This document shows, in pieces, positions 2,997 to 49,500 of a stretch of 64,000 nucleotides of DNA (position 1 is the first letter of the stretch; each line of letters begins with the position of its first letter). A model generated the notes under the pieces. That model made no database searches. It was not told where the DNA came from and was given only the letters and a program-made list of their open reading frames with translations. The position numbers and the translations under genes were made by a program. Where the stretch lies: the NCBI GenBank assembly GCA_963840965.1, contig CAWJAW010000009.1:256487-320486 (forward strand), in the 5' to 3' direction. The DNA comes from an uncultured Bacteroidales bacterium (GTDB lineage Bacteria; Bacteroidota; Bacteroidia; Bacteroidales; VadinHA17).

Positions 2997-3988
2997 CAGA
3001 AAGGCTTGTAGCCAATAAGTTCCCTGACTTCTCTGACGGTGCGTGCCGCGCTTTCCCGGGCTTTTTCCCCGCCTTCCCTGACCACTTTTGCAAGATACTC
3101 ATTATCTGCAAGTATCTCGTTCAGTTTTTCGCGAATAGGAGTCAGTGCAATTATAATATCTTCAGCAAGTTGTTTCTTGAGGTCTCCGTAACGTATTTCG
3201 CAGGAGGCATGCTTTTCGCGGAAATGATCAACGACCTGTTTTTCCGACACGACCTCCAGTATTGTGAACAGGTTCTTTACCGGTTCCGACATAGCCTGTC
3301 GCATTTCAGTCGGACCTGCATCGGTGACTGCGCTCATTACCTTTTTTCTTATCGCCTGCGGAGTATCTGACAGATAGATGCCGTTGCCTTCGCTCTTCCC
3401 CATTTTCCCGCTTCCGTCGAGTCCCGGGATCTTGATCAGCTCCATACCGAAATTATAGGCATCGGGTTCCGGAAAGTATTCAACTCCGTATATGGAGTTG
3501 AACCGTCTGGCAAAACGCCTCGTCATTTCGAGATGCTGCTCCTGGTCCTTTCCCACCGGAACCTTGGTTGCCTTATGGATTATAATATCCGCAGCCATCA
3601 GTACGGGGTAAGTTAGCAAACCGGCGTTAATATTGTCGGGATGTTTCCTTATTTTTTCCTTGAATGAAGCAGTGCGTTCCAGTTCTCCGACATAAGCGTT
3701 CATATTAAGGAGCAGGTAGAGTTCCGAGACCTCGGGAACATCGCTCTGGATAAAAAGGGTGGCTGCTTCCGGGTCGATTCCGCATGCCAGGTATTCAGCC
3801 AGCACCTGCTTTATGTTTCCATGAAGGTCGTCGGGTTTGGGATGAGTAGTAAGGGCATGATAGTCGGCTATGAAGAAGTAGCATCTGTTCTCCTTCTGCA
3901 TTTTTATAAAGTTTCTTATCGCACCGTAATAATTCCCCAGGTGAAGTTTCCCTGTCGATCTGATCCCGCTCACAACTGTTTCCATCAT
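2996..3988 (-). CDS. trpS: tryptophan--tRNA ligase
   Basis: Class I motifs HLGNYYG (HIGH-like) and KMGKSEGN (KMSKS). A TrpS-like N-terminus MMETVVSGIRSTGKLHLGNY starts at 3988. The ORF itself extends to 4054. Confidence 0.9.
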   Translation of the reverse strand: MMETVVSGIRSTGKLHLGNYYGAIRNFIKMQKENRCYFFIADYHALTTHPKPDDLHGNIKQVLAEYLACGIDPEAATLFIQSDVPEVSELYLLLNMNAYVGELERTASFKEKIRKHPDNINAGLLTYPVLMAADIIIHKATKVPVGKDQEQHLEMTRRFARRFNSIYGVEYFPEPDAYNFGMELIKIPGLDGSGKMGKSEGNGIYLSDTPQAIRKKVMSAVTDAGPTEMRQAMSEPVKNLFTILEVVSEKQVVDHFREKHASCEIRYGDLKKQLAEDIIIALTPIREKLNEILADNEYLAKVVREGGEKARESAARTVREVRELIGYKPF

Positions 3989-29688: not shown

Positions 29689-30272
29689 AAACGGATCCCC
29701 TCCTCGGAGGGGTTGGGGGTGGGTTAAGACAATGTGAGAGTGAGAGCGGGAGTGAGTAGAAAAACGTAATGGTAAACGGATCCCCTCCTCGGAGGGGTAG
29801 GGGTGGGTTAATAGTTATTATATAAATAATTATATGTCAAAAAAACGCAAAATCATCCCATATAATCCGGAACTTAAAGACCTGGCAAGTCAGCTCAGAA
29901 AGAATATGACTCTTTCAGAGGTTTTGCTCTGGATCGAGCTGAAAAATAAACAAATTCTTGGTTATGATTTTGACCGTCAGATTCCAATTGGGGATTACAT
30001 TGTCGATTTTTATTGCAAGGATTTAAGTCTGGCCGTTGAGATTGACGGGGATACTCATATATTCAAGTACGACGATGATGAGGTGAGGCAAAAGAATCTG
30101 GAGAAACTGGGTGTTCATTTTCTGAGATTTGAGGATATTGAGGTAAAAAAGAATATGGGGAATGTTCTGAGGGTTATTGAGGATTGGATTGAAAGAAGAA
30201 GACCCACCCCTACCCCTCCAAAGGAGGGGATCCTTAGAGAACCCACACCGAGCCCTCCAAAGGAGGGGATCC
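29689..30272 (+). mobile_element. DUF559-endonuclease mini-cassette bounded by duplicated terminal inverted repeats
   Basis: Left side: AAACGGATCCCCTCCTCGGAGGGGTWGGGGTGGGTTAA x2 (29689-29727, 29774-29811). Right side: the inverse copies ACCCACMCCKASCCCTCCAAAGGAGGGGATCC x2 (30202-30233, 30241-30272). The DUF559 ORF lies between them. Confidence 0.55.
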
Positions 30273-31795
30273 TTAGAGGACATATTTCTGCACCTGTTTT
30301 TGTTGGAAAACTTGCCATTGGCGGCACAAATCCTATCCGTATTCAGTCAATGACCAACACCGACACTCTCGACACCAAAGCCTCCGTTGCACAATGCATC
30401 AGAATAATTGAAGCCGGTGCCGACCTGGTGCGCCTTACTGCCCAGGGGATGAGGGAGGCGGCTTATCTTGCAAACATTAAAGCGGAACTGAGGAAGGCCG
30501 GATTTGAGACACCGCTTGTTGCGGATATTCATTTCAATCCCTCGGCCGCTGAACTTGCAGCAAGTATTGTCGAAAAGGTAAGGGTTAATCCGGGTAACTA
30601 TGCCGACAAGAGAGCATCATTCATAAAAGTGGAGTTCTCCGAACAGGAATACCGCGAGGAACTCGAAAGGATACACAAAAGGATATTGCCGCTTATCAAC
30701 ATATGCCACGAACACGGTACGGCTGTAAGGATAGGGGTCAATCACGGTTCACTGTCCGACAGGATAATGACCCGCTATGGCAACACCCCCGAGGGGATGG
30801 CAGTGTCGGCAATGGAATTCATAAGAATATTCCGGGCGGAGAATTTTCATAAGCTGGTACTGTCGATGAAATCGAGCGATACCGGCATAATGATAAAGTC
30901 TACCCACCGTTTGGTTGAGATGATGAAGGAGGAAGGATTCGCGTATCCTCTTCACCTGGGAGTGACCGAGGCAGGCGAAGGTGAGGATGGAAGGATAAGA
31001 TCATCGGCCGGCATCGGAGCGCTGCTGGCTGAAGGTATTGGCGATACTATCAGGGTTTCGCTGTCGGAAGCTCCCGAGAAAGAGATACCGGTGGCAAGGG
31101 AAATCCTGAATTTCCTTGCAGGTTCAGCCGGACGGGTAACAGATCCTGACAGCATCCTTGATTTCAAAACACACACTAAGCCATATAAGCCGGAAGTGGT
31201 GACTAATAATGACGGCATGTTTTCAGGAGAAGAAAATCAATGTTATAACAATGTTATAACGTTGTCAAAAGACAGTTTACCGCCTCCAGATATATTTAAA
31301 TATGAAGATGTTATCCTGAACGGAGAATTCAACGAGGATAACCCGGAAAAGCTGGCAATCGACTCAGCCGCCCTTCTTGGAAGATACTTCATCACACGTC
31401 AGGCTGGCGGAATATGCATCACGAACAAGGGAAAAATCAAAGGAGACAAGCTGAAGGAGCTTTCATTTTCAATTCTGCAGGCAACCGGAGCAAGGATTAC
31501 AAGGGTGGTTTATCTGTCATGTCCCACCTGCGGCCGGACCAGGTTCGATCTTCAGGAGGCGGTGAGGGAGGTGAAGGCTGTAACCGGTCACCTGACAGGA
31601 CTGAAGATTGCAGTGATGGGATGCATAGTGAACGGTCCGGGCGAAATGGCCGATGCGGATTACGGATACGTTGGGGCGGGGAACGGGAAGGTGCATATCT
31701 ACCGGGGAACAACCCAGGTGTTAAAGAACATTCCGCAGGAATCGGCTGCTGAAGCTTTACTGGCTCTTATTGAGAATGATCAGAGAGCGACGTGA
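29834..31795 (+). CDS. ispG: in-frame fusion ORF: N-terminal DUF559 (Vsr-fold endonuclease-like) domain + 4-hydroxy-3-methylbut-2-enyl diphosphate synthase
   Basis: Residues 1-125 (LRKNMTLSEVLLWIELKNKQILGYDFDRQIPIGDYIVDFYCKDLSLAVEIDGDTH..LRFEDIEV) are DUF559. The linker PTPTPPKEGILREPTPSPPKEGILRG is a translated repeat. Then IGGTNPIRIQSMTNTDT...GCIVNGPGEMADADYGYVG is IspG with the long Bacteroidota-type insert. There is no ATG/GTG/TTG between the repeat and the IspG core. Confidence 0.85.
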   Translation: MSKKRKIIPYNPELKDLASQLRKNMTLSEVLLWIELKNKQILGYDFDRQIPIGDYIVDFYCKDLSLAVEIDGDTHIFKYDDDEVRQKNLEKLGVHFLRFEDIEVKKNMGNVLRVIEDWIERRRPTPTPPKEGILREPTPSPPKEGILRGHISAPVFVGKLAIGGTNPIRIQSMTNTDTLDTKASVAQCIRIIEAGADLVRLTAQGMREAAYLANIKAELRKAGFETPLVADIHFNPSAAELAASIVEKVRVNPGNYADKRASFIKVEFSEQEYREELERIHKRILPLINICHEHGTAVRIGVNHGSLSDRIMTRYGNTPEGMAVSAMEFIRIFRAENFHKLVLSMKSSDTGIMIKSTHRLVEMMKEEGFAYPLHLGVTEAGEGEDGRIRSSAGIGALLAEGIGDTIRVSLSEAPEKEIPVAREILNFLAGSAGRVTDPDSILDFKTHTKPYKPEVVTNNDGMFSGEENQCYNNVITLSKDSLPPPDIFKYEDVILNGEFNEDNPEKLAIDSAALLGRYFITRQAGGICITNKGKIKGDKLKELSFSILQATGARITRVVYLSCPTCGRTRFDLQEAVREVKAVTGHLTGLKIAVMGCIVNGPGEMADADYGYVGAGNGKVHIYRGTTQVLKNIPQESAAEALLALIENDQRAT

Positions 31796-39311: not shown

Positions 39312-39752
39312 TCAGGTCTGACTATTATACTGGGTGAAGCCGTGTTGCCTGATATACTCCTCGCACTCCTGATCCCAGGTTTTCGATCTGTGATGAGATT
39401 CCTGATTACGGATATAGTTCCTTACTCTGTTGATGTGTGATTCGCTGATCGAGGCGGCATAGTATTCGTCGGCCCACTCGAATCTGGTTTTGATAAGCTG
39501 GATCTTGTTTATCCAATGTGCGGATTCCCCCTTGATCAATTGCATCACTTTCGACAGCGCCTGATCACAGCCGAGCATAAGCAGACAGTGAAGGTGTTCG
39601 GTGTGTCCGTTCAGGAAATCAATATGTATGTCTTTCGAAGCTGCATTGGTACGGATGTGGTTTATCACTTCATACTTCCTTCCGGGATAGAGGCAAGGTA
39701 CCCGGTTTTTGGTGCCCCACACGCAGTGGATCCAGATTTTTACGTAGGACAT
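39312..39752 (-). CDS. IS200-like Y1 (HUH) transposase / REP-associated tyrosine transposase-like
   Basis: IWIHCVWGTKNR.., HUH motif in GHTEHLHCLL, catalytic Tyr context RVRNYIRNQESHH. 146 aa. No IS605-type tnpB partner. Confidence 0.85.
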   Translation of the reverse strand: MSYVKIWIHCVWGTKNRVPCLYPGRKYEVINHIRTNAASKDIHIDFLNGHTEHLHCLLMLGCDQALSKVMQLIKGESAHWINKIQLIKTRFEWADEYYAASISESHINRVRNYIRNQESHHRSKTWDQECEEYIRQHGFTQYNSQT

Positions 39753-41104: not shown

Positions 41105-42318
41105 TCATAAATTTTAACTTCAAACAACTGCATATACTGGTAAACAGATATTTATAAGGTGCTCGAAAATCAATTGCAGAATTTTACAAGGTAAATTCAT
41201 AATTTAAAACACAGGCCTGTACCAACAAAAAAGAAACTTCCATTATTCATATCATGTATCCTTGAATTAAGCTGAATACCATGTTTTTGAACAAATAAAA
41301 TGTAATATCTATGCCTGCGTGGTAACCGAAATGGTTATTACGAACATAATGATAATCATTAAAAATATATGTAAAGCTTCTTCCTCAAGATCATATTCAT
41401 ATTCAATGTTTTTTATGAAAGAAGCTTTTTGCTCTTGCCATAGATGCACCAGCAATGACATCCATTGTAATCCATTTCTTTTCAATTGGCCTGAGGAAAC
41501 TGAAATACTGCACCTAAATTCATTAATGACATTTCTGGGTATTTATATCTCAAGCGATCCTCCTATTTCACTATATGGAACTTCAAAGACAGATAATATT
41601 GAGAATTGTAAATGTCCAAATAGAACCTTTACTCCATACCACGATAAATGAAAATGAAGATTCTCCAGAAAACAGATTACCGCCTCCATAAGTATCGGAC
41701 AGATCTATTGAATAATTGAATAGAAACACTAATTTTTAGTTGAGTCAGTAGCCTTTGTAGATTCGACATTGGTTAACACAAAAAATCGAATAATATTGTT
41801 ACATTTTAATAAATAGTTCTTCATTTTCTATCATTTTTAAAACCATCCCTTTAGTTACTATCTTCACCAAAGGGATGGATAGCATATAAATTACTTAATA
41901 GAGAATCCTTAAAGGAGTTGTCAATTTAAAGACTTAGCACACGTTTTCCTTACAGTCCAACCATCTTTTACTTCATCACCTGGTTCAGGATTTGAATTTG
42001 TTCTCATAAACCAATCTCTATCCCATTCAGACAAGTCCTAAAAAATCCCCACCATAAGACACTTTGAATGTTGCAGTTACAGTTGGACTTAAGATTATCT
42101 GTTTTATAACCGACGATGTGCTTATACTAGCTTTCTTTGACAGTGTCATATTCATAAACTAGACATACACTGTTGTATTTTTTCGGCTCTCCAATTAGTA
42201 TCCCAACTAATATTAACAGTATACCAACCACCATTTGAATGAACAGTCCAATCATTAATAGCAGCTTTTGCATATGATCTAGGATAACTTAATTGGAATT
42301 ACTGTTGTAAATTTGCCG

Positions 42319-43074
42319 TTAACTGCTCCAGTTGTATAGATTATATTCTGGATAACCTCTAGATATTCTCAATTCTAGATCTCCTTCGAACAGACCACCA
42401 CAATAATCAGCACATCTTACTTTACCAACTTTTACTTCATATATTGGATCACCTTTTACACCAGCTATGGCATCAGTTAAGATTCCCTTAGTATCACCAT
42501 CCTCATCCTTCGGCATGACCAGCAGCACCATATTTTTATCAGCGTACTCTTCATTTACTCTTACCTGAACCATCTTTCTTCCCTCGAAGCGGTAGCCGGT
42601 GTTTTCAACATCGTTGTCGATGGGATGGGCGGCGACGGTGAAGGAAAGGGTACCTTTCGGGTAGAAGCTCGAAGGATAGGGGCAGTAGATATAGCAGTCA
42701 TTCTTTGAAAGGAAGTTAATCAGATCACTGGTATTGCCCTTGGACTCCGATGAGGTGCATCCTTTAATAAAGCCGGTCCGGAGGTTTCTGAATGATCCGG
42801 CGACACTCTTGGATTCATCCATAAGGTCGCTGAAGGGCAGGCTGTAGCATTCACGGTCTTCCCTTGAAAGGGAAACAAGTTCGTTAAGCACGGCTTCATC
42901 CTGTATAACATCGGCAAGGATTTGTGCTGCCTGATCAAGATTGGTCTTGAGAAGCGTTTCAGAATCGGTGAGGGCTCTCCTGCCGATCAGATCCTGATTA
43001 ATGGGTCCTGAATCATATTTTTCGCAGCTTGCCAGAGTAAGGCAAACAGCTATAACACAGACAATCTTTTTCAT
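42319..43074 (-). CDS. hypothetical lipoprotein
   Basis: MKKIVCVIAVCLTLASCEKYDSG lipobox (ORF opens at 43101). Protein-like reading continues beyond the stop at 42319. Confidence 0.6.
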   Translation of the reverse strand: MKKIVCVIAVCLTLASCEKYDSGPINQDLIGRRALTDSETLLKTNLDQAAQILADVIQDEAVLNELVSLSREDRECYSLPFSDLMDESKSVAGSFRNLRTGFIKGCTSSESKGNTSDLINFLSKNDCYIYCPYPSSFYPKGTLSFTVAAHPIDNDVENTGYRFEGRKMVQVRVNEEYADKNMVLLVMPKDEDGDTKGILTDAIAGVKGDPIYEVKVGKVRCADYCGGLFEGDLELRISRGYPEYNLYNWSS

Positions 43075-43466
43075 TTTAGAAAAATGTTTTGAATTGAACA
43101 TTTGGGTTATAAGCCCTTTGTTATATTTAAGGTTGCGACCTGTGGGGTAAGATCCCGGCGGATTGGCCGCTTTATCCCCGGGAGATGAGTCAGTTCTGTT
43201 TCATAGGCACGAGGTTTTACATGCAGTGAGACATTATGTTTATTCCACAAACAACATTAATTCAGTTTAAAATCAACCGCACCGTACTCCCTTTCACTGT
43301 ATTGCAATAGCAATATTAAAATGCGCCGGGGCCAGAATAAAATTTTTTTGCAATTATTTTTCGAAAAAATGAAAAAAATTTTCCGCGGGGGTATATATAA
43401 TAAAAAGGTATGGTTTGAAACACGAGGGGGAAGGGTATGAGGTATGAGGCGTGAGGCGTGAACCAC

Positions 43467-43592
43467 CTTCGCTAAAACCTTCGCTAAAGCTACGGTGTTC
43501 AAAGAAAGCTACGGCGGTCGAAGGGCGTGAAGGCGAAGAAGAAGAAGTTTCTCGCAGATTTGCGCAGAGGAAAACCGCAGATTTCCGCAGAG
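43467..43592. repeat. dispersed composite element, inverse copy of 18022-18122
   Basis: CTTCGCTAAAACCTTCGCTAAAGCTACGGTGTTCAAAGAAAGCTACG ... CTCGCAGATTTGCGCAGAGGAAAACCGCAGATTTCCGCAGAG. Confidence 0.85.
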
Positions 43593-43625
43593 GGCTTAAC
43601 CACGGTGTAACACGGAGTGTCAAAG

Positions 43626-43768
43626 AGATGCGTAAATCCCGAGCGCAGTTTCGGGGCAAGTCATCGAACTCATAAAACTCCGTGCGACTCCGCGGTTAAA
43701 TTATTGATTATAAATGAATAACTTCGTGTTACTCCGTTCCTAACTCCGTGCGACTCCGTGGTTAAACC
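43626..43768 (+). repeat. ~143-bp element, left direct repeat flanking HEPN-MNT
   Basis: GATGCGTAAATCCCGAGCGCAGTTTCGGGGCAAGTCA..CATAAAACTCCGTG..ATTATTGA..AACTCCGTGCGACTCCGTGGTTAAAC. Roughly 80-85% identical by eye to 44743-44886. Confidence 0.8.
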
Positions 43769-43885
43769 AATGGGCAAAGCCCTTCCGTGGTTAAGTCCCT
43801 GTGATTCCGTGGTTAAAGCAAGGGACAGGGGGTGAAGCTAAGCAAAAAACTGTGTGGGTGGGGAAAGGCAATTACATACGCCATC

Positions 43886-44296
43886 CTACTTACCTGTATT
43901 ATTTTTCTGGTCTATCAGCAATTCTATCTTTTCGATAAGTATTGCGACAGGCTGGAAAAGCGGCATTGTTTTTTCCTGATCAAAATCAAAGAAATCACCG
44001 TAGTCTCCCTTTTGTCTCCAGTCAAAGAGTTCAACGAAAAGCCTGCCTGATTCCTTATCAATCAATCCAGTTTTAATAAAATGAAGAGTGAATTGATGCT
44101 TCAGTCCTGCATGTGAGCTTGCATAAATATCAAATTTATAAAGAAGAGCTGATATAGCATAGAAGCAAGAATAATATAGTCTGTTGATTGAAGAATTCCA
44201 ATGTCCGTTTGTTGCAAGCAGTTTAGCAGCCTCCAGAGTCTCCCTGGAGATTTTCAAACGATAGCTGATGTAATCCGGATTTATTGATCGGGTCAT
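43886..44296 (-). CDS. HEPN domain protein (toxin-like partner of MNT)
   Basis: 136 aa, helical. ..INRLYYSCFYAISALL.. and WRQKGDYGD, an HEPN R-x4-6-(H/Y)-type motif. Overlaps the upstream NTase by 4 nt. Confidence 0.8.
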   Translation of the reverse strand: MTRSINPDYISYRLKISRETLEAAKLLATNGHWNSSINRLYYSCFYAISALLYKFDIYASSHAGLKHQFTLHFIKTGLIDKESGRLFVELFDWRQKGDYGDFFDFDQEKTMPLFQPVAILIEKIELLIDQKNNTGK

Positions 44297-44610
44297 AACC
44301 TGACACCTTCTCTTTTAATAGTCCGATAGAGAGGAGTTACCTTATGTAAGCTATTCCAGACCTGTTTCTGGTAAACGAAAGTAGAAAATACTTCACCTGT
44401 CTCGATCTCAATTTCAAAAAGACTATTCCGAAATGATCTTTCGATTTCCGTCGATACAGCATATTGTGTCAGGATCAGAATGTCCCAGTCAGATTCATTC
44501 CTGGCATCACCCCTGGCCCGCGAACCAAAAAGTATGACCTGAGCTTTAGGATCAATGATCTTAATGCTGCTTTTAATCCGCTTTAATATTTCGTCGTTTT
44601 TGAGGGTCAT
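44293..44610 (-). CDS. minimal nucleotidyltransferase (MNT) domain protein
   Basis: ILFGSRARGDARNESDWDILIL matches the GSxxRG...DxD pol-beta NTase motif. 105 aa. Confidence 0.85.
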   Translation of the reverse strand: MTLKNDEILKRIKSSIKIIDPKAQVILFGSRARGDARNESDWDILILTQYAVSTEIERSFRNSLFEIEIETGEVFSTFVYQKQVWNSLHKVTPLYRTIKREGVRL

Positions 44611-44742
44611 AATGCAAATCTACAAAATAAATGGATTGGCTGAATGGATGAAACCACTTATCGCTGATTTTAAGGCGACAAGGCGTGAAAGAGGAGAGGT
44701 CGTGCAGGTCATGCAGGCGCAGGTCAAGCAGGTCGTGTTAAA

Positions 44743-44886
44743 GTGATGCGTAAACCCCGAGCGTAGCGTCGGGGCAAGTCACCGGATTCATAAAACTCCG
44801 TGTTACTCCACAGATAAATTATTGAATATCAATAATTAACTCCGTGTTCCTCCTTTCTTAACTCCGTGCGACTCCGTGGTTAACTC
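44743..44886 (+). repeat. ~143-bp element, right direct repeat flanking HEPN-MNT
   Basis: GTGATGCGTAAACCCCGAGCGTAGCGTCGGGGCAAGTCA..CATAAAACTCCGTG..ATTATTGA..AACTCCGTGCGACTCCGTGGTTAAC. Confidence 0.8.
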
Positions 44887-44915
44887 CTTGCGACTCCGTG
44901 GTTAAAGAACCCCCT

Positions 44916-45635
44916 TCAAGGGGCAAAGGTTCTTACAACTGCATCCTTAATTGAGATTTTACCGGCGCCAAGCGAATTGTCCGATCCCAGGAGAAAATCA
45001 TTTGCAATTGTTGTGATGGATCTGCCTAACTGATCAATATCGACCGGCCTTATATGCCAGTCAGATTTCTGAAAAAGAAAAACCGGGAAGCTTTTAATAC
45101 GTTGTTCCACGTCAATCTCGTTGATTATTGCCTTGTTTTTAGCTTCGCCGAAAACCTCCATCCAGTTAAAGCTGTAGTTCTGAGATATCATGCATATATC
45201 AAAGACATCCTTTGGTTCATCGCGGCTGACAACAGCTGTAAGCTTATTTGTCAGTATATTAAGAGGTGTATCTATAAAACCATATTCATATTTATTGGCG
45301 ACACCACACCTGTAAGCAGTATCATTTACAAATTCAATCTTAAGCGCTCCTTCTTCGTCTTCAATATAAAAACGAACAAAATCCTCGTAAATAGTGCTTT
45401 GTTCCTTTAGCAGCGAAACTTGTCTTGCCAGGACTGTCTCAATATCCTTTACAAGAACATGAAACTCATGACTTTTATTCAGAAAAAAATACAGATCCTC
45501 ACTGAAGCGGTGGTTGAGATAAAATCTCCCCAGTGCAGTCCCGCCGGTCAGGTAAAAGTTACCAATTACCGGCTTCAAAGCCTGAAGCACCTTATCCTGC
45601 GTCCGGTAAAGCCTCCTGTAATCTTTTCCTGACAT
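44916..45635 (-). CDS. AbiEii/AbiGii-family nucleotidyltransferase toxin-like protein
   Basis: FYLTGGTALGRFYLNHRFSEDLYFF matches the family's N-terminal motif (GGTAL...RxSxDlDf) as recalled. Confidence 0.75.
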   Translation of the reverse strand: MSGKDYRRLYRTQDKVLQALKPVIGNFYLTGGTALGRFYLNHRFSEDLYFFLNKSHEFHVLVKDIETVLARQVSLLKEQSTIYEDFVRFYIEDEEGALKIEFVNDTAYRCGVANKYEYGFIDTPLNILTNKLTAVVSRDEPKDVFDICMISQNYSFNWMEVFGEAKNKAIINEIDVEQRIKSFPVFLFQKSDWHIRPVDIDQLGRSITTIANDFLLGSDNSLGAGKISIKDAVVRTFAP

Positions 45636-45897
45636 ACTTGTATTTTTTACGGACTGATTCCGGCCATAACGATGCGATAACCTTCTCAGTCATCATCTCC
45701 TTAACCTTTTCAACAGGTACAAGTTGGATGACTGTGAACCACGGTAAACCCGTCAGCATTCTGGTAAATAACTGCTCACGGCTTAAATGACCGGCTTCTT
45801 TAATCCTGCCGTCAAGCAAGCCATCCAATTCGGCGGGTGATATGGAGTAATCCCACATGACGGATTTGAGAATTTTATGACGCTGCCGTTTATCCAT
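45592..45897 (-). CDS. small upstream partner ORF (putative antitoxin)
   Basis: 101 aa, directly upstream of and overlapping the AbiEii-like ORF by 44 nt. No family recognised. Confidence 0.5.
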   Translation of the reverse strand: MDKRQRHKILKSVMWDYSISPAELDGLLDGRIKEAGHLSREQLFTRMLTGLPWFTVIQLVPVEKVKEMMTEKVIASLWPESVRKKYKYVRKRLQEALPDAG

Positions 45898-46168
45898 TCA
45901 TTAAAATGCTGCATTTCAACAAATATACTCAATATTTCGCATTTACGGGAAGGAGGAAAGGCAAGAAGGCGTGAGGATTAAGGCGTGAAGCGTGCTCCGT
46001 GTTACAAATGGTTAAACTCTTGCAATTCATATCGTTTCAGGGCAAATAATTATCGTTTTACGATATCCGGGTTATTGTAAGCAATGCCAGACGGGGCGTT
46101 GCCCCGCCCTATACTATTCCAGGCCTACGGCCTGAGTAAGAGATGGAAAATTCTGCAGCCCTGTCAGC

Positions 46169-46204
46169 GACCGCAAGACTGCAGGACCGCAAGACTGCAA
46201 GACC
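46169..46204. repeat. 16-nt tandem repeat x2.25
   Basis: GACCGCAAGACTGCAR x2 plus GACC. Inverse relative of 31811-31846. Confidence 0.8.
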
Positions 46205-46221
46205 TTCTTGCCGTCATGCCT

Positions 46222-46535
46222 TTACTGCAGCAGCGTCACGTTTCCGACTATCTTGAACGGCTTCCCGTCGGCATATTTGCCTTCGACGTACCAGACATAC
46301 ACTCCCTGCGGACAGAGCTGGCCCTTGTAATAACCGTTCCACGGAATGTTGATATCCCTGCTTTCGAATATCAGCACGCCAAGTCTGTTGAAGATCTGAA
46401 GCTTGTAGTTGATCACCTTCTGCCTGATCGGCGGATAGAAGAACTGGTCTACCTCGGTGCCGCCCGTCGGGAGGTCGCTCCTTTCGATCGGACCGGTCTT
46501 GTTCGGGGTAAACACCGTCGCAAACCTGATCTCCC
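46222..46535 (-). other. T9SS type-B C-terminal sorting domain (gliding-motility-associated CTD) coding segment
   Basis: ..FTPNKTG...FYPPIRQKVINYKLQIFNRLGVLIFESRDINIPWNGYYKGQLCPQGVYVWYVEGKYADGKPFKIVGNVTLLQ* matches the CHU_C/type-B CTD pattern as recalled. Confidence 0.75.
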
Positions 46536-49500
46536 CTACCGGCTCGACAGTCACTGCCGGCGACAGCTTGTACATGTCGGTACAGCCGTTCGTCGAATAA
46601 GCCCAGAGGGTTATGTCGTAGTCGCCTTCATCCATATACCTGTGATACGGCTCCTTCACCTTCGAGGTGTCGCCGTCGCCAAAGTCCCACAGATACGATG
46701 TGGCACCCTGACTAAGGTTGAAACATCTCACCCTTTCATCATTCACATATACCAACGGCGGGGCGATCTCGAAGTAAGCCTTCGGGGAAGGCCATGCTTC
46801 CACCACCTGGGTGTACATCGAGTTGCCGCCCGGACCGGTAACCACAAGTTCTATCCTGTATGTGCCGGGAGTGAAGTATGTATAGGTCGGGTTTTTCGCC
46901 GTCGATATACTTCCGTCTCCGAAATCCCAGCGGTATGTTGTTCCGGGAACTTCGGTGTTCAGGGATGTGTTGTTTATGGTGACATATAACGGTGCGCATC
47001 CCGATGGTATCGAATCGAACAACGCCACAGGTGCCGGAGGAACAACCGATACGTCATGACTTACGCTGTCGGAGCAGTTTGCGTTCGAGGCTATAAGAGT
47101 TACGGTATAGGTACCTACATCATTATAGCTGTGAACCGGATTCTCGTCGGTGGAAGTACCACTATCGCCGAACCTCCAGAGCCAGTTCCATGTGCCGTCA
47201 CTGGTCTCATTGGTAAACTGAACCGGATTTCCGGCCGGATCAAAGATCTGGGTTACCGGATCGGCGGTAAACTGAGGCAGAGGCACCGGCATCACCGTTA
47301 TGTCGAAGGTCTTTGTATCGACACAGTTGTAGAATGATGTCGTCGTGAGCCTTACAGTGTGCACCACAGGCGCTGTTGTAAGGTTGACGTAAAGATGAGA
47401 TGACACATTGGTGGCATATCCCGACACACCGTCGCCATACTCCCAGAAGTACCTTGTAGCACCCGGCAGCGCGGTGAAGGTTATTGAATTGCCGGAGCAG
47501 ATGACATCTACATTGGGTGTGAAGGTTGCATCAACAGCCGGATAAACTGTTACCAGCCGGGTATATTCTGCCGAACATCCTCCGGGCGACTCCACTGTCA
47601 GCTTCACATTGTGATATTCAATCGATCCCGGATTACTGTTTACAAACACATGAACAGGGCTGGCATCAACCGTGTTGGTTGTTCCATCGTCAAAGTCCCA
47701 GGTGAAGCTTGTTATTCCTGTCATATCCTTCGAGAATGTCACGCTAACCGGAGTGCAGCCATAATCAACATCCTGTGTGAACTGCGCCGACGGACTGTCA
47801 ACGACTACTGCAACATCATCATTTGAGGTACATCCGTTGCTGTCGGTTACCCTGTAGTTCATGTTGTAAGTACCCGAAATGAACGAAGTGAAGGCGGGTG
47901 ACTGAACCGTGTAGCTGTTCAAAGGACCCACATCGCCTGTCCAGCGGTGCTGTGTATAAATACCTGAACCACCGGTCGGATTGCCATCTATCACTATAGG
48001 CACTCCTCCACAGGCTGCTACCGGATCGATAGCGCTGAAGTCGACAACCGGATTGGCATTAACAGTCAGAGTTGCAGGATTCGTATACGTCGTTGCACAA
48101 CCTGTTATCAGGGCAAGCCTGTACTGGTTGGTGTTTAGTGCAACAGGTGCATTCATTATTGCAAGCTGCTGTGTATTAGTACCTATGTAAGTTGCATTAT
48201 CCGTAAGGTTGGTCCATACTCCTCCTGAGAATACCTGCCATTGCAGTGAGGTATATCCTGTACCGTTGCCGAGTAAGGTTATTGAACCGTTTTCGCAAAT
48301 GGGCGGGGCCGTTGGATGAAGAGTCACAGCCGGAGGATTGACAACCCTCAGAACCGCAAAGTTAGTATTGACAGGAACTCCGCAGATCCCGGCTGCAACT
48401 GCCCTGAATACCCAGTTGTTATGTATTGCCTGGGCATTTGTTACAGAAAGCGTACTGGTTGTTGAGCCTGTGATATGGGCATCATCAGTCGAGAGTATGA
48501 AACCCGCTCCCTTGTTCACATACCACTGCCAGGTTACGCCGTCACCGTCGGCATCAGCTTCAAAAATGGCATCCTGCCCGAGGCATACGGTTGAATCCTT
48601 CGGATGAATTGTTATCTCGGGAGCCGTGTTTACAGTCAGTGTTGCATCGGCCGAAGTAACAGTTGTTCCACAGCCGGTCACCTCAACATGATATACGAAT
48701 CCGTCCATTCCCCTTATTGTATTGAATATCTGAAGAGTCGGAGTCATGGATCCGAAATAGGTGCCGCCGTCGGTAGTAGGAACGGGTCCTGAACCATCAT
48801 TGACAAACCACTGGTAAGTAAGATTAGTGCCTGTTGCAGTTACCCTGAAGCTTGCCAGGTTGAATTCGCATACTGCAGGCGACGGTGTGAATGAAGTTAT
48901 CACAGGCAGGTCGCTTACTATCACAGTGGCGGTACCACTGAGGTTAGGCGAAGGCTCAGTGACATTGCATCCATTGGCATCCGTTACGCTGATAAGACTG
49001 TAGGTTGTGGTGACAGCAGGGAAAGGGGTGACAATGATATCGTCGCCGCTGTCGTAGCTATTGACAACACCATGGTTGGCAATATTAACTGTGAACGGAC
49101 CCGTGCCGCTTAGCATTGTTACTCTTATAACAGAGCTTTCTCCGGGGCAGATCGTTGCACCTCCGGTGAGGAAGGCAACGGGACGCGGGTTGACAAGCAC
49201 TTCCACCACGTTGCTGTACACCGGCATGCATGTTCCGGAAGTAACCATTCTCCTGTAGTGCTGGGTATAAGTAGCTCCCGACGGCGGTGTATACCCGCTC
49301 AAATTCGCATTAGCCGCAATGTTCACGAACGGACCTGCTGCATTGGCAGACGACTGCCACTGGTAGATGTATGCACCGGGACCGCCTGCAGGACCAGTCA
49401 CTTGCGTGATGGGTACAGGGTTGTTGCCATAGCATACCACCTGGTTGTCCTCTATTGAACCCGGGGTAAGATCAGCGGGTTGGGTGATGTTGATCACTGC

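Follow-up and report, generated by a model that had tools for sequence, protein, structure and literature searches.

A HEPN/MNT gene pair in a variable slot of a Bacteroidales genome, flanked by intergenic mosaic repeats and probably the body of a former integron cassette

Integrons have already been reported from Bacteroidota (PMC8618304), and chromosomal integrons typically carry toxin-antitoxin and defense cassettes (PMC13108822; 10.1101/2024.07.02.601686). Here, a gene pair encoding a HEPN-domain protein and a minimal nucleotidyltransferase (MNT) is described from a 64,000-nucleotide window of an uncultured Bacteroidales genome (G000:C9:256487-320486, where G000 is the source genome, a 4.06-Mb assembly in 10 contigs that is 100% complete; C-numbers denote contigs, G-numbers the genus genomes compared, and L-numbers extracted loci or contigs). 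The pair lies between two copies of a direct repeat, and a first-pass annotation of the window had read these copies as attC-like sites, possibly of a group of clustered attC sites without an integron-integrase (CALIN). The explanation favored here, to which a probability of about 0.6 is assigned as a whole, is that the pair is an interchangeable unit in a hypervariable slot, that the repeats around it are intergenic mosaic and not attC sites, and that the unit itself is the body of a former integron cassette. The kinds of element involved are known, and their combination is a variant, because integrons of Bacteroidota and toxin-antitoxin or defense cassettes have both been reported before.

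Set beside integron cassettes, attC sites, and CALIN (PMC4889954) and the toxin-antitoxin cassettes of chromosomal integrons (PMC13108822; bioRxiv 10.1101/2024.07.02.601686), the locus is alike in presenting a small, apparently self-promoted toxin-antitoxin unit whose homologues lie between structured R''-L''...L'-R' sites near a tyrosine recombinase, in having unit boundaries that coincide with cassette boundaries, and in the gain, loss, and re-ordering of whole units. It is unlike them in that one of the repeats here is without an arm, in that neither an unpaired spacer nor asymmetry is present and a narrow covariance model gives no match, and in that no recombinase lies within 4 kb of HEPN/MNT. 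The integron-like platform that the genome carries on contig C3 differs in its turn from described integrons, its recombinase apparently being without the IntI-specific insertion and the sites of its cassettes with open reading frames (ORFs) being, at 300-420 nt, longer than usual attC.

The genes themselves resemble HEPN-MNT pairs of the HepT/MntA-type (type VII). All genes of the locus lie on the minus strand, as judged from the ORF list and Pfam. The MNT gene comes first (44293..44610; 105 aa; PF01909 and PF18765, with the GSx10DxD motif), and its stop overlaps by 4 nt the start of the HEPN gene (43886..44296; 136 aa; PF05168, 53.5 bits). Unlike the described pairs, the HEPN protein has no canonical Rx4-6H motif; R94-x4-Y99 (RQKGDY) stands in its place and is kept in all cassette homologues of HEPN. 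The NCBIfam MntA model gives 34 bits here against a cut-off of 60. “Toxin-antitoxin” is accordingly used as a designation by homology.

A different set of precedents concerns the repeats. Mosaics of short palindromes and arrays are known as repetitive extragenic palindromes (REPs) and bacterial interspersed mosaic elements (BIMEs) in Proteobacteria, together with the REPIN (REP doublet forming hairpins) and REP-associated tyrosine transposase (RAYT) system, as short tandemly repeated repetitive (STRR) heptamers in cyanobacteria, and as Neisseria intergenic mosaic elements (NIMEs) with dRS3, alongside the “minimal mobile elements” of that genus. The elements of the window share with these dispersed imperfect palindromes and short tandem arrays in a fixed order within intergenic DNA, as well as fast turnover between strains and a location where conserved flanks enclose differing accessory genes. 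They differ in vocabulary, consisting here of 11-nt CTCCGTG modules ending GGTTAA with alternative spacers (H and W, described below), in a low copy number (tens), and in that no cognate transposase is identified. A further comparison is offered by the pdif modules of Acinetobacter plasmids (PMC7399989), in which small modules, including toxin-antitoxin pairs, are likewise bracketed by short recombinase-type sites in varied contexts. However, pdif are 28-bp 11-6-11 XerC/D sites in inverse orientation and none such is found here, where the AT-rich palindrome is 9-3-9, degenerate in the left copy, and the repeats are direct.

The direct repeat around HEPN/MNT is well defined. A repeat search pairs 43604-43765 with 44722-44883 (162 nt, 83% identical), and a gapped alignment of 43626-43830 with 44744-44915 gives 141/168 = 83.9%, which bears out the ~143-bp repeats first described. 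In a whole-genome search the second copy is recovered at E = 6e-43, and there is no third full copy in the 4.06-Mb genome. Common to both copies are a GC hairpin (CCCGA..TCGGG at 43638-43656; CCCCGA..TCGGGG at 44755-44774), the AT-rich palindrome, and 11-nt CTCCGTG modules ending CCGTGGTTAA. The shared hairpin and modules, previously recognized, hold up in the counts: a 37-nt hairpin motif has 2 matches against 0 expected, and ACTCCGTGGTTAA-type modules have 9 in the window against 1.24 expected.

The left copy (43604..43765, plus strand), situated 3' of HEPN, consists of a hairpin-bearing (H-type) spacer, the degenerate AT-rich palindrome, and CTCCGTG modules. A zone of short tandem repeats precedes it (43413..43593, unstranded), made up of GGTATGAGG/GGCGTGA 8-mers and CTTCGCTAAA, AAAGCTACGG, and CGCAGATTT units, and further CCGTGGTTAA modules ending GGTTAAAG follow it (43766..43830, plus strand), forming a junction with the 3' end of the unit that is constant in all strains compared. 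The right copy (44743..44910, plus strand) follows a zone of AAGGCGWSA 8-mers and then GTCGTGCAG/GTCATGCAG 9-mers (44660..44742, unstranded) and contains, after its hairpin, an AT palindrome at 44816-44838 and CTCCGTG modules that run to GGTTAAAG at 44907. In G015, the 3' flank of the AbiE unit is orthologous to the right third of this copy (44828-44910).

The inverse module GCTTAACCACGGTGTAACACGGAGT at 43594-43618 pairs with 43743-43768 (26 nt, 85% complementary) and forms an outer stem in single-stranded DNA of both strands (z = -2.0, -2.35), and the outer heptamers of this palindrome are GCTTAAC and GTTAAAC, as had been claimed. The imperfect palindrome is thus confirmed for the left copy but not for the right, which has no inverse (TTAACCACGG) arm and in which folding yields no long stem (z = -1.3).

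This difference bears directly on the question of attC. Rather than both arms at each site, the right copy and its G015 orthologue hold the CTCCGTG..GGTTAA side alone. The left stem pairs 25 nt with 25 nt, has 4 mismatches but is free of indels, and so leaves no unpaired central spacer or extrahelical asymmetry; the spacers of the real sites of the genome, on C3, measure 2-3 nt versus 6 nt. A covariance model, R1, was built from the 7 complete short-class attC-like sites of this genome, which are near-identical and make the model sequence-narrow. R1 scores these 7 sites at 134-158 bits and a copy cut by the contig end at 66.5 bits, with no other matches in G000. In 42000-47000 this sequence-narrow model does not exceed 8.4 bits (E 0.27), and the repeat itself scores 6.2 bits. 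An Rfam scan of 43000-46400 at E<=10 returns chance-level matches only. The real sites end CCGTTAG/CCGTTAT, unlike GTGGTTAA, and a regular-expression search finds neither of the long-class site motifs TAACnCGGAC and GCCGGGCCGTTA in the window; their matches in G000 are concentrated at C3:700-5630, apart from a few scattered ones that are probably due to chance. Within 4 kb on one strand there is at most one palindromic site, and no integrase is nearby.

The earlier statement that the window holds no integrase extends to the whole of contig C9, although an integron-like platform with different sites exists elsewhere, on C3. Genome-wide, there are three tyrosine recombinases, on C3, C6, and C10, of which none scores above the TIGR02249 (integron integrase) cut-off, and no serine recombinase. 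Because the right copy is without an arm, the left stem without spacer or asymmetry, the narrow R1 without a match, and the elements members of dispersed families, the flanking repeats are not integron attC sites, and the suggestion that they form a CALIN falls with them. For the attC claim this is a largely deflationary outcome, the repeats being intergenic mosaic of the sort usual in this lineage.

That mosaic is polar and recurs throughout the genome and the genus, and the two repeat copies are one allele of it. In its usual order, GGCGTGA-type 8-mers lead into arrays of GACGAAG or GTCGTGCAG-type 9-10-mers, followed by a spacer and then by the 11-nt CTCCGTG modules ending GGTTAAAG. The same order is found at C3:40165, C4:187819, C9:196837, C9:294315, C10:147067, and C2:599592, where the modules end GGTTAAA, and window positions 44672-44910 obey it exactly. 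About 59 clusters with at least three CTCCGTG-like units are present in the genome, as are 26 occurrences of CCGTGGTTAA against 7.4 expected. The spacer occurs in at least two alleles: H, the hairpin form of both window copies, and W (GTCGTTTCCACTGATAATGACTGGCAG..AATAAAA), which is found at C2:599540, beside AbiE in G015, and beside HEPN in strain contig L113.

Palindromes are scattered through the same intergenic DNA. A family of ~99-nt palindromes (TTCACCACGG...CAGTGGTTAA) built from CACGG/CCGTG units of 9-11 nt has 18 solo copies (for example, C4:183579-183677, C6:23453-23551, C9:66838-66935, and C10:61932-62030), all in spacers between genes and 9/18 between convergent genes; a CCCGATAGCCATCGGG mini-hairpin is inserted in two of these copies. 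A hairpin-bearing palindrome of ~104-125 nt is found solo in G005, G101, G013, and G092. Its member in the window is a complete REP-like element of ~104 nt (43594..43699, plus strand), with the TTAACCACGG.. arm, the hairpin at 43638-43656, and the ..CTCCGCGGTTAA arm. Dispersed, composed of shared modules in recurrent order, and variable among close relatives, these elements behave as a REP/BIME-like mosaic does. Both mosaics beside HEPN/MNT carry the H spacer by happenstance, and a complete REP-like palindrome is an additional part of the left one. It is therefore the fallback entertained in the first-pass annotation, that the repeats are part of a generic intergenic mosaic, that the 59 clusters, the 18 solo palindromes, and the solo hairpin elements bear out.

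Terminal inverted repeats and dispersed copies are also what would be expected of elements resembling miniature inverted-repeat transposable elements (MITEs), two of which might mobilize the toxin-antitoxin genes as a composite transposon, in trans, with the transposase encoded elsewhere. Such an arrangement is very improbable at this locus. Of the two copies, the right one is incomplete, and since the two ends of the element are unlike (TTCACC / GGTTAA), TTAA is no target duplication. Of DDE and RAYT-like Y1 genes the genome holds no more than a single fragment of the former and two of the latter (C4:77607 and window 39402-39743). Moreover, the element does not flank the HEPN/MNT homologues found elsewhere, and none of 100 genus genomes shows two elements with HEPN/MNT at an unrelated locus with a target duplication. 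For the 99-nt family, TTAA was considered as a MITE target duplication and rejected, its ends being unlike (TTCACC/TTTACC vs GGTTAA).

The variability of the locus becomes apparent when relatives are compared. Homology of the flanks ends on the left at 43411-43420 (43460 versus the closest metagenome-assembled genome, MAG) and resumes on the right at 46181-46223, which defines a slot bordered by a conserved lipoprotein gene on one side and, on the other, by the 3' end of a giant adhesin gene. In G003 only 433 nt separate the ends of flank homology, and in G024 and G042 some ~630-670 nt, promoter region included, separate the lipoprotein and adhesin genes; neither leaves room for a gene pair. 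The slot of G005 holds a different AbiEii/AbiEi-like pair and a cupin gene between two direct, complete palindromes; that of G064, an ATPase; that of G091, upstream of the lipoprotein gene, two ATPases along with a RAYT-like gene, the adhesin flank lying beyond the stretch read; and that of G021, a methyltransferase-like ORF and another protein of the type IX secretion system (T9SS) type. In G015 the AbiE unit (86%) precedes the HEPN/MNT unit (89%), the opposite of the order in G000, with a remnant of a DUF559 element between them; the swap keeps the orientation of both units. In the closest relative, UBA6117 (flank 86.6%, AbiE 91%), the AbiE unit stands beside the left flank with no HEPN/MNT unit there, and elsewhere in this incomplete MAG HEPN/MNT has a match at 70% only. 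Polymorphism at the level of whole units, the sign of cassette-like behavior that the first-pass annotation had pointed to, is thus found among relatives.

Contigs that encode an identical MNT protein also vary in what flanks the unit. A DUF4143 ATPase adjoins the unit and its H-type mosaic in L111; in L113 the mosaic on the HEPN side is of the W-type, with other tandem repeats on the MNT side; and L117 has other tandem repeats on the MNT side and, on the HEPN side, an AT-palindrome-plus-module element like that of the window. The part that stays constant across strain contigs spans about 43793-44689. Since strains carry the unit with other flanks, the H/H direct repeat belongs to the arrangement in this genome and not to the HEPN/MNT unit. 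The comparisons show gain, loss, swapping, and re-partnering of units, with mosaic as the variable DNA that separates them; their junctions coincide with or adjoin the GGTTAAAG end of the arrays.

In at least five public runs, the unit is recovered from Logan as separate contigs of ~1.03-1.08 kb (L114-L116, L118, and L119). Both ends of L114 lie in near-identical CTCCGTG modules, and the 1,032-1,040-nt contigs stop slightly short on the MNT side. Separate contigs of this kind are as expected if module repeats or alternative neighbors break the assembly graph in those populations. RAYT-like genes also occur near the slot: the Y1 gene inside the slot of G091 is at L031 3563-4015, and in G000 one lies 3.7 kb left of the slot (39402-39743). 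The CTCCGTG cluster nearest to the latter on the same contig is ~1.5 kb off (C9:294315), and a different repeat, GCCAGGGTT.., reportedly surrounds that gene.

A duplication generated by insertion offers another way to obtain two similar flanks. HEPN/MNT might have inserted into a single mosaic beside AbiE through a staggered cut like that of the DUF559 elements, leaving the two copies as a long target-site duplication. Precedents exist in this genome, in which at least eight copies of a ~790-nt DUF559-derived element are flanked by duplications of 70-230 nt, for two of which (149 nt and 104 nt) G015 supplies proof in the form of empty sites with a single copy, and the DUF559-element remnant in G015 abuts the HEPN-side repeat. 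Nevertheless, an origin of this kind is improbable. The terminal inverted repeats of the DUF559 element are not present between the copies, which differ by 16%, compared with 11% between G000 and its G015 orthologue. Furthermore, the predicted empty site, a single H-type mosaic beside AbiE, occurs in no relative, and other strains hold the unit without the duplication.

Where the unit came from is suggested by its homologues. Relatives of the HEPN protein (58-80% aa identity) are encoded in arrays of uniform orientation in which a long-class site comes after every gene or gene pair; metagenome arrays of this kind show as many as 7 sites in 8 kb. Within the genus, MNT/HEPN occurs as a cassette in G001:C16 (L016), flanked by sites at 198-519 and 1295-1612, and this in-array pair is 66% identical in DNA to that of the window. 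The homology of the window to cassettes extends from 44659, 6 nt after the GTTA of R', to 43896-43901 at the end of HEPN, so that the 5' leader is conserved with genuine cassettes up to that point. In the cassettes R'' begins at the end of HEPN, and in L052 it overlaps the stop codon. The window unit, compared with cassettes, is thus limited at its 5' end by a point 6 nt past GTTA and at its 3' end by the stop codon, the place at which R'' begins in cassettes, and it has no attC: in both the window and G015, ~63 nt of unrelated sequence follow, and then TTTAACCACGGA modules. Because homology to true cassettes runs from R' plus 6 nt to the HEPN stop and attC is absent, the HEPN/MNT unit is, on sequence comparison, most likely an escaped integron cassette body. 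The gene pair is therefore cassette-like in its unit-level polymorphism and in having real cassettes as homologues, as the first-pass annotation had supposed, but the repeats are not its sites.

Cassettes outside integrons have been discussed as products of secondary-site insertion (PMC4889954). In the metagenome cassette loci, searches by tblastn find neither AbiEii nor the C3 recombinase. The possibility that the repeat element travels with HEPN/MNT was considered and rejected, as homologues of ~70% DNA identity in G007, G001, and G029 are without CTCCGTG modules. In G015 (L022 4790-4830; compare window 44660-44672), the cassette-body homology is directly preceded by CGCCCTAAC, in the position that the GTTA of R' takes in true cassettes; this sequence equals the R''-type core of the attC-like sites of the genus. 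This match may be due to chance, because TTAGGGCG is also a mosaic 8-mer.

A possible source of such cassettes, an array led by an Xer-like recombinase, is present in the same genome. Outside the window, at G000:C3:1-7945 (L096 is C3:4472-7603 and L007 is C3:5570-9103), an integron-like platform consists of a recombinase and a co-oriented array downstream of it. The recombinase (388 aa; C3:6779-7945, minus strand) scores 209 bits with NF040815 (cut-off 220) and 197 bits with TIGR02249 (cut-off 265). Its best solved relative is XerC-like (4a8e), with IntI4 (2a3v) third. Its alignment to TIGR02249 skips model positions 180-238, presumably the IntI-specific insertion. Because standard integron detection requires that insertion (PMC4889954), the recombinase of the platform would not, by that criterion, be scored as an integrase.

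Two classes of site make up the array. Sites of ~126 nt, 7 complete and one cut by the contig end, have the form CCCTAAC-AAG-CCGGTAAATGCC...GGCACTTACCGG-CTGACC-GTTAGGG, and fold, as a consensus, in an attC-like manner into an R stem, spacers of 2 nt versus 6 nt, and a long L stem; five of them lie in tandem ORF-less cassettes of ~350 nt adjoining the recombinase. The ORF cassettes end in the long sites of 300-420 nt, which start with yTAAC-(A/T)CGGAC-L'' and end with L'-GCCGGGCC-GTTAr, with covarying L''/L' pairs (AATAAAGG/CCTTTATT, AATATGGG/CCCATATT, GGTTTAAT/ATTAAACC, and AATAAAATTA/TAATTTTATT). The system is conserved in the genus: R1 has matches, in arrays, in 16/100 other genus genomes, and an orthologous recombinase (60-88% identity) stands directly upstream of an array in G015 (C58), G064 (C5), and G060 (C5).

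Under the explanation favored here, the HEPN/MNT unit would have left an Xer-type integron array such as that on C3, landed in the hot spot between the lipoprotein and adhesin genes, and lost its attC. It would later have been moved, lost, or re-partnered by recombination with breakpoints in the mosaics, either through homologous or illegitimate exchange between mosaic copies or through the process that builds the mosaic. The order in G015 could be reached from that in G000 by a pop-out between the two H copies and re-entry via the shared GGCGTGA/GTCGTGCAG arrays. The unit itself may act as a self-promoted toxin-antitoxin or abortive-infection module, and the hairpin and module part of the mosaic may terminate transcription or insulate units from each other. 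Read in this way, the locus would provide a natural example of a cassette body outside an integron, with an in-array homologue in a congener and units permuted in a sister species. It is relevant to the ways in which the chromosome takes up cassettes from integrons or supplies them, and it links the mosaics of Bacteroidales to unit-level gene shuffling at a defense-type hot spot.

Several observations weigh against this account. The ends of the left palindrome fit RYYYAAC/GTTRRRY, and R1, with which the attC reading was tested, is a narrow model derived from 7 near-identical sites. Breakpoints recur at or beside the module end GTGGTTAAAG, namely at 44906 (L111), at 43793 (L113), and at the 3' boundary of AbiE in three genomes, a pattern that would also be expected from a site-specific system, and in G005 two complete palindromes, directly oriented, enclose the cupin gene. 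With respect to ancestry, the opposite direction, recruitment of a chromosomal pair into cassettes, is to be considered, since the coincidence of boundaries alone is no proof of escape; neither direction is proven by it.

A rival idea is that the module ends, or else the TTAACCACGG...CCGTGGTTAA palindromes, serve as true sites, analogous to attC, of site-specific recombination by the Xer-like integron recombinase or an enzyme of the XerC/D type, and that the units of the slot are excised and re-inserted as cassettes outside the integron. Besides the breakpoints at GGTTAAAG, the match of the left palindrome to R''/R' patterns, and the G005 cupin gene, this idea would account for two units that are swapped with orientation kept, and it could draw on the recombinase-plus-array system conserved in the genus; the module TTAAC-CACGGA is also weakly like the long-class site start yTAAC-ACGGAC. 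It is nonetheless unlikely, given that one arm is missing in the right copy and in the HEPN-side copy of G015, that the palindromes have neither spacer nor extrahelical asymmetry, that R1 does not match them, and that real sites have different ends. Most members of the family, moreover, stand solo in housekeeping spacers, often between convergent genes, and strains carry the unit with quite different flanks. An extension of the idea, held to be equally improbable, is that the mosaic module ends TTAAC-CACGG/CCGTG-GTTAA are working recombination sites that derive from or mimic the R boxes of Xer-type integron sites, by which escaped units such as HEPN/MNT and AbiE are still shuffled as cassettes at hot spots of the chromosome. 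If true, this would constitute a second, dispersed tier of an integron-like system whose recombinase is without the IntI insertion.

Within the window, the neighboring AbiEii unit (44916..45897, minus strand) confirms the pair annotated next door in the same orientation. It comprises an AbiEii-family nucleotidyltransferase of 239 aa (44916-45635, minus strand; PF08843) and, ahead of it in reading direction and overlapping it, a 101-aa ORF without a family match (45592-45897, minus strand). Beyond these genes, the right-hand mosaic remnant up to the adhesin stop codon (45898..46221, unstranded) contains GGCGTGA arrays, an GCTCCGTGTTACAAATGGTTAAAC module, and an GACCGCAAGACTGCAG tandem. The HEPN/MNT unit has a G+C content of 38.8% versus ~45% for the genome. 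An exact-protein look-up returns no match for AbiEii and one contig for HEPN.

The putative promoter and 5' leader of the operon (44611..44659, minus strand) include an TAGATTTG box at 44615-44622 in the minus-strand reading, 4 nt before the ATG of the MNT-HEPN operon. From its sequence and the -7 TAnnTTTG consensus, this box is taken here to be a Bacteroidetes-type promoter. At the end of AbiEii, a terminator-like hairpin, CCCCTTGAAGGGG, with a T-rich tail (44911..44923, minus strand) spans the AbiEii stop codon (44916-44918), and TTTAC trails the GC hairpin of the repeat when it is read on the gene strand. A scan for promoters and terminators gives only a weak excess over shuffled sequences.

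Other repeated elements of the genome are of separate interest. The ~790-nt element has ends TCCTGACTTGTGAC...GTCACAAGTCAGGA and 89-96% identity among its copies, at least eight in number and each with its target duplication; they include C2:503431-504225, C4:375374-376157, C3:128876-129664, C3:23149-23930, C3:38049-38839, C3:144318-145110, and C4:339651-340465. A 1.09-kb version with an intact DUF559-like ORF is located at C2:76349-77436. To the same family belong the DUF559 cassette at window 29689-30300 and the deleted remnant in the slot of G015 (L022 ~3590-3812). Finally, at C2:14046-15045, two identical 84-aa ORFs of the GIY-YIG type occur in tandem, surrounded by 96-nt direct repeats that are 100% identical.

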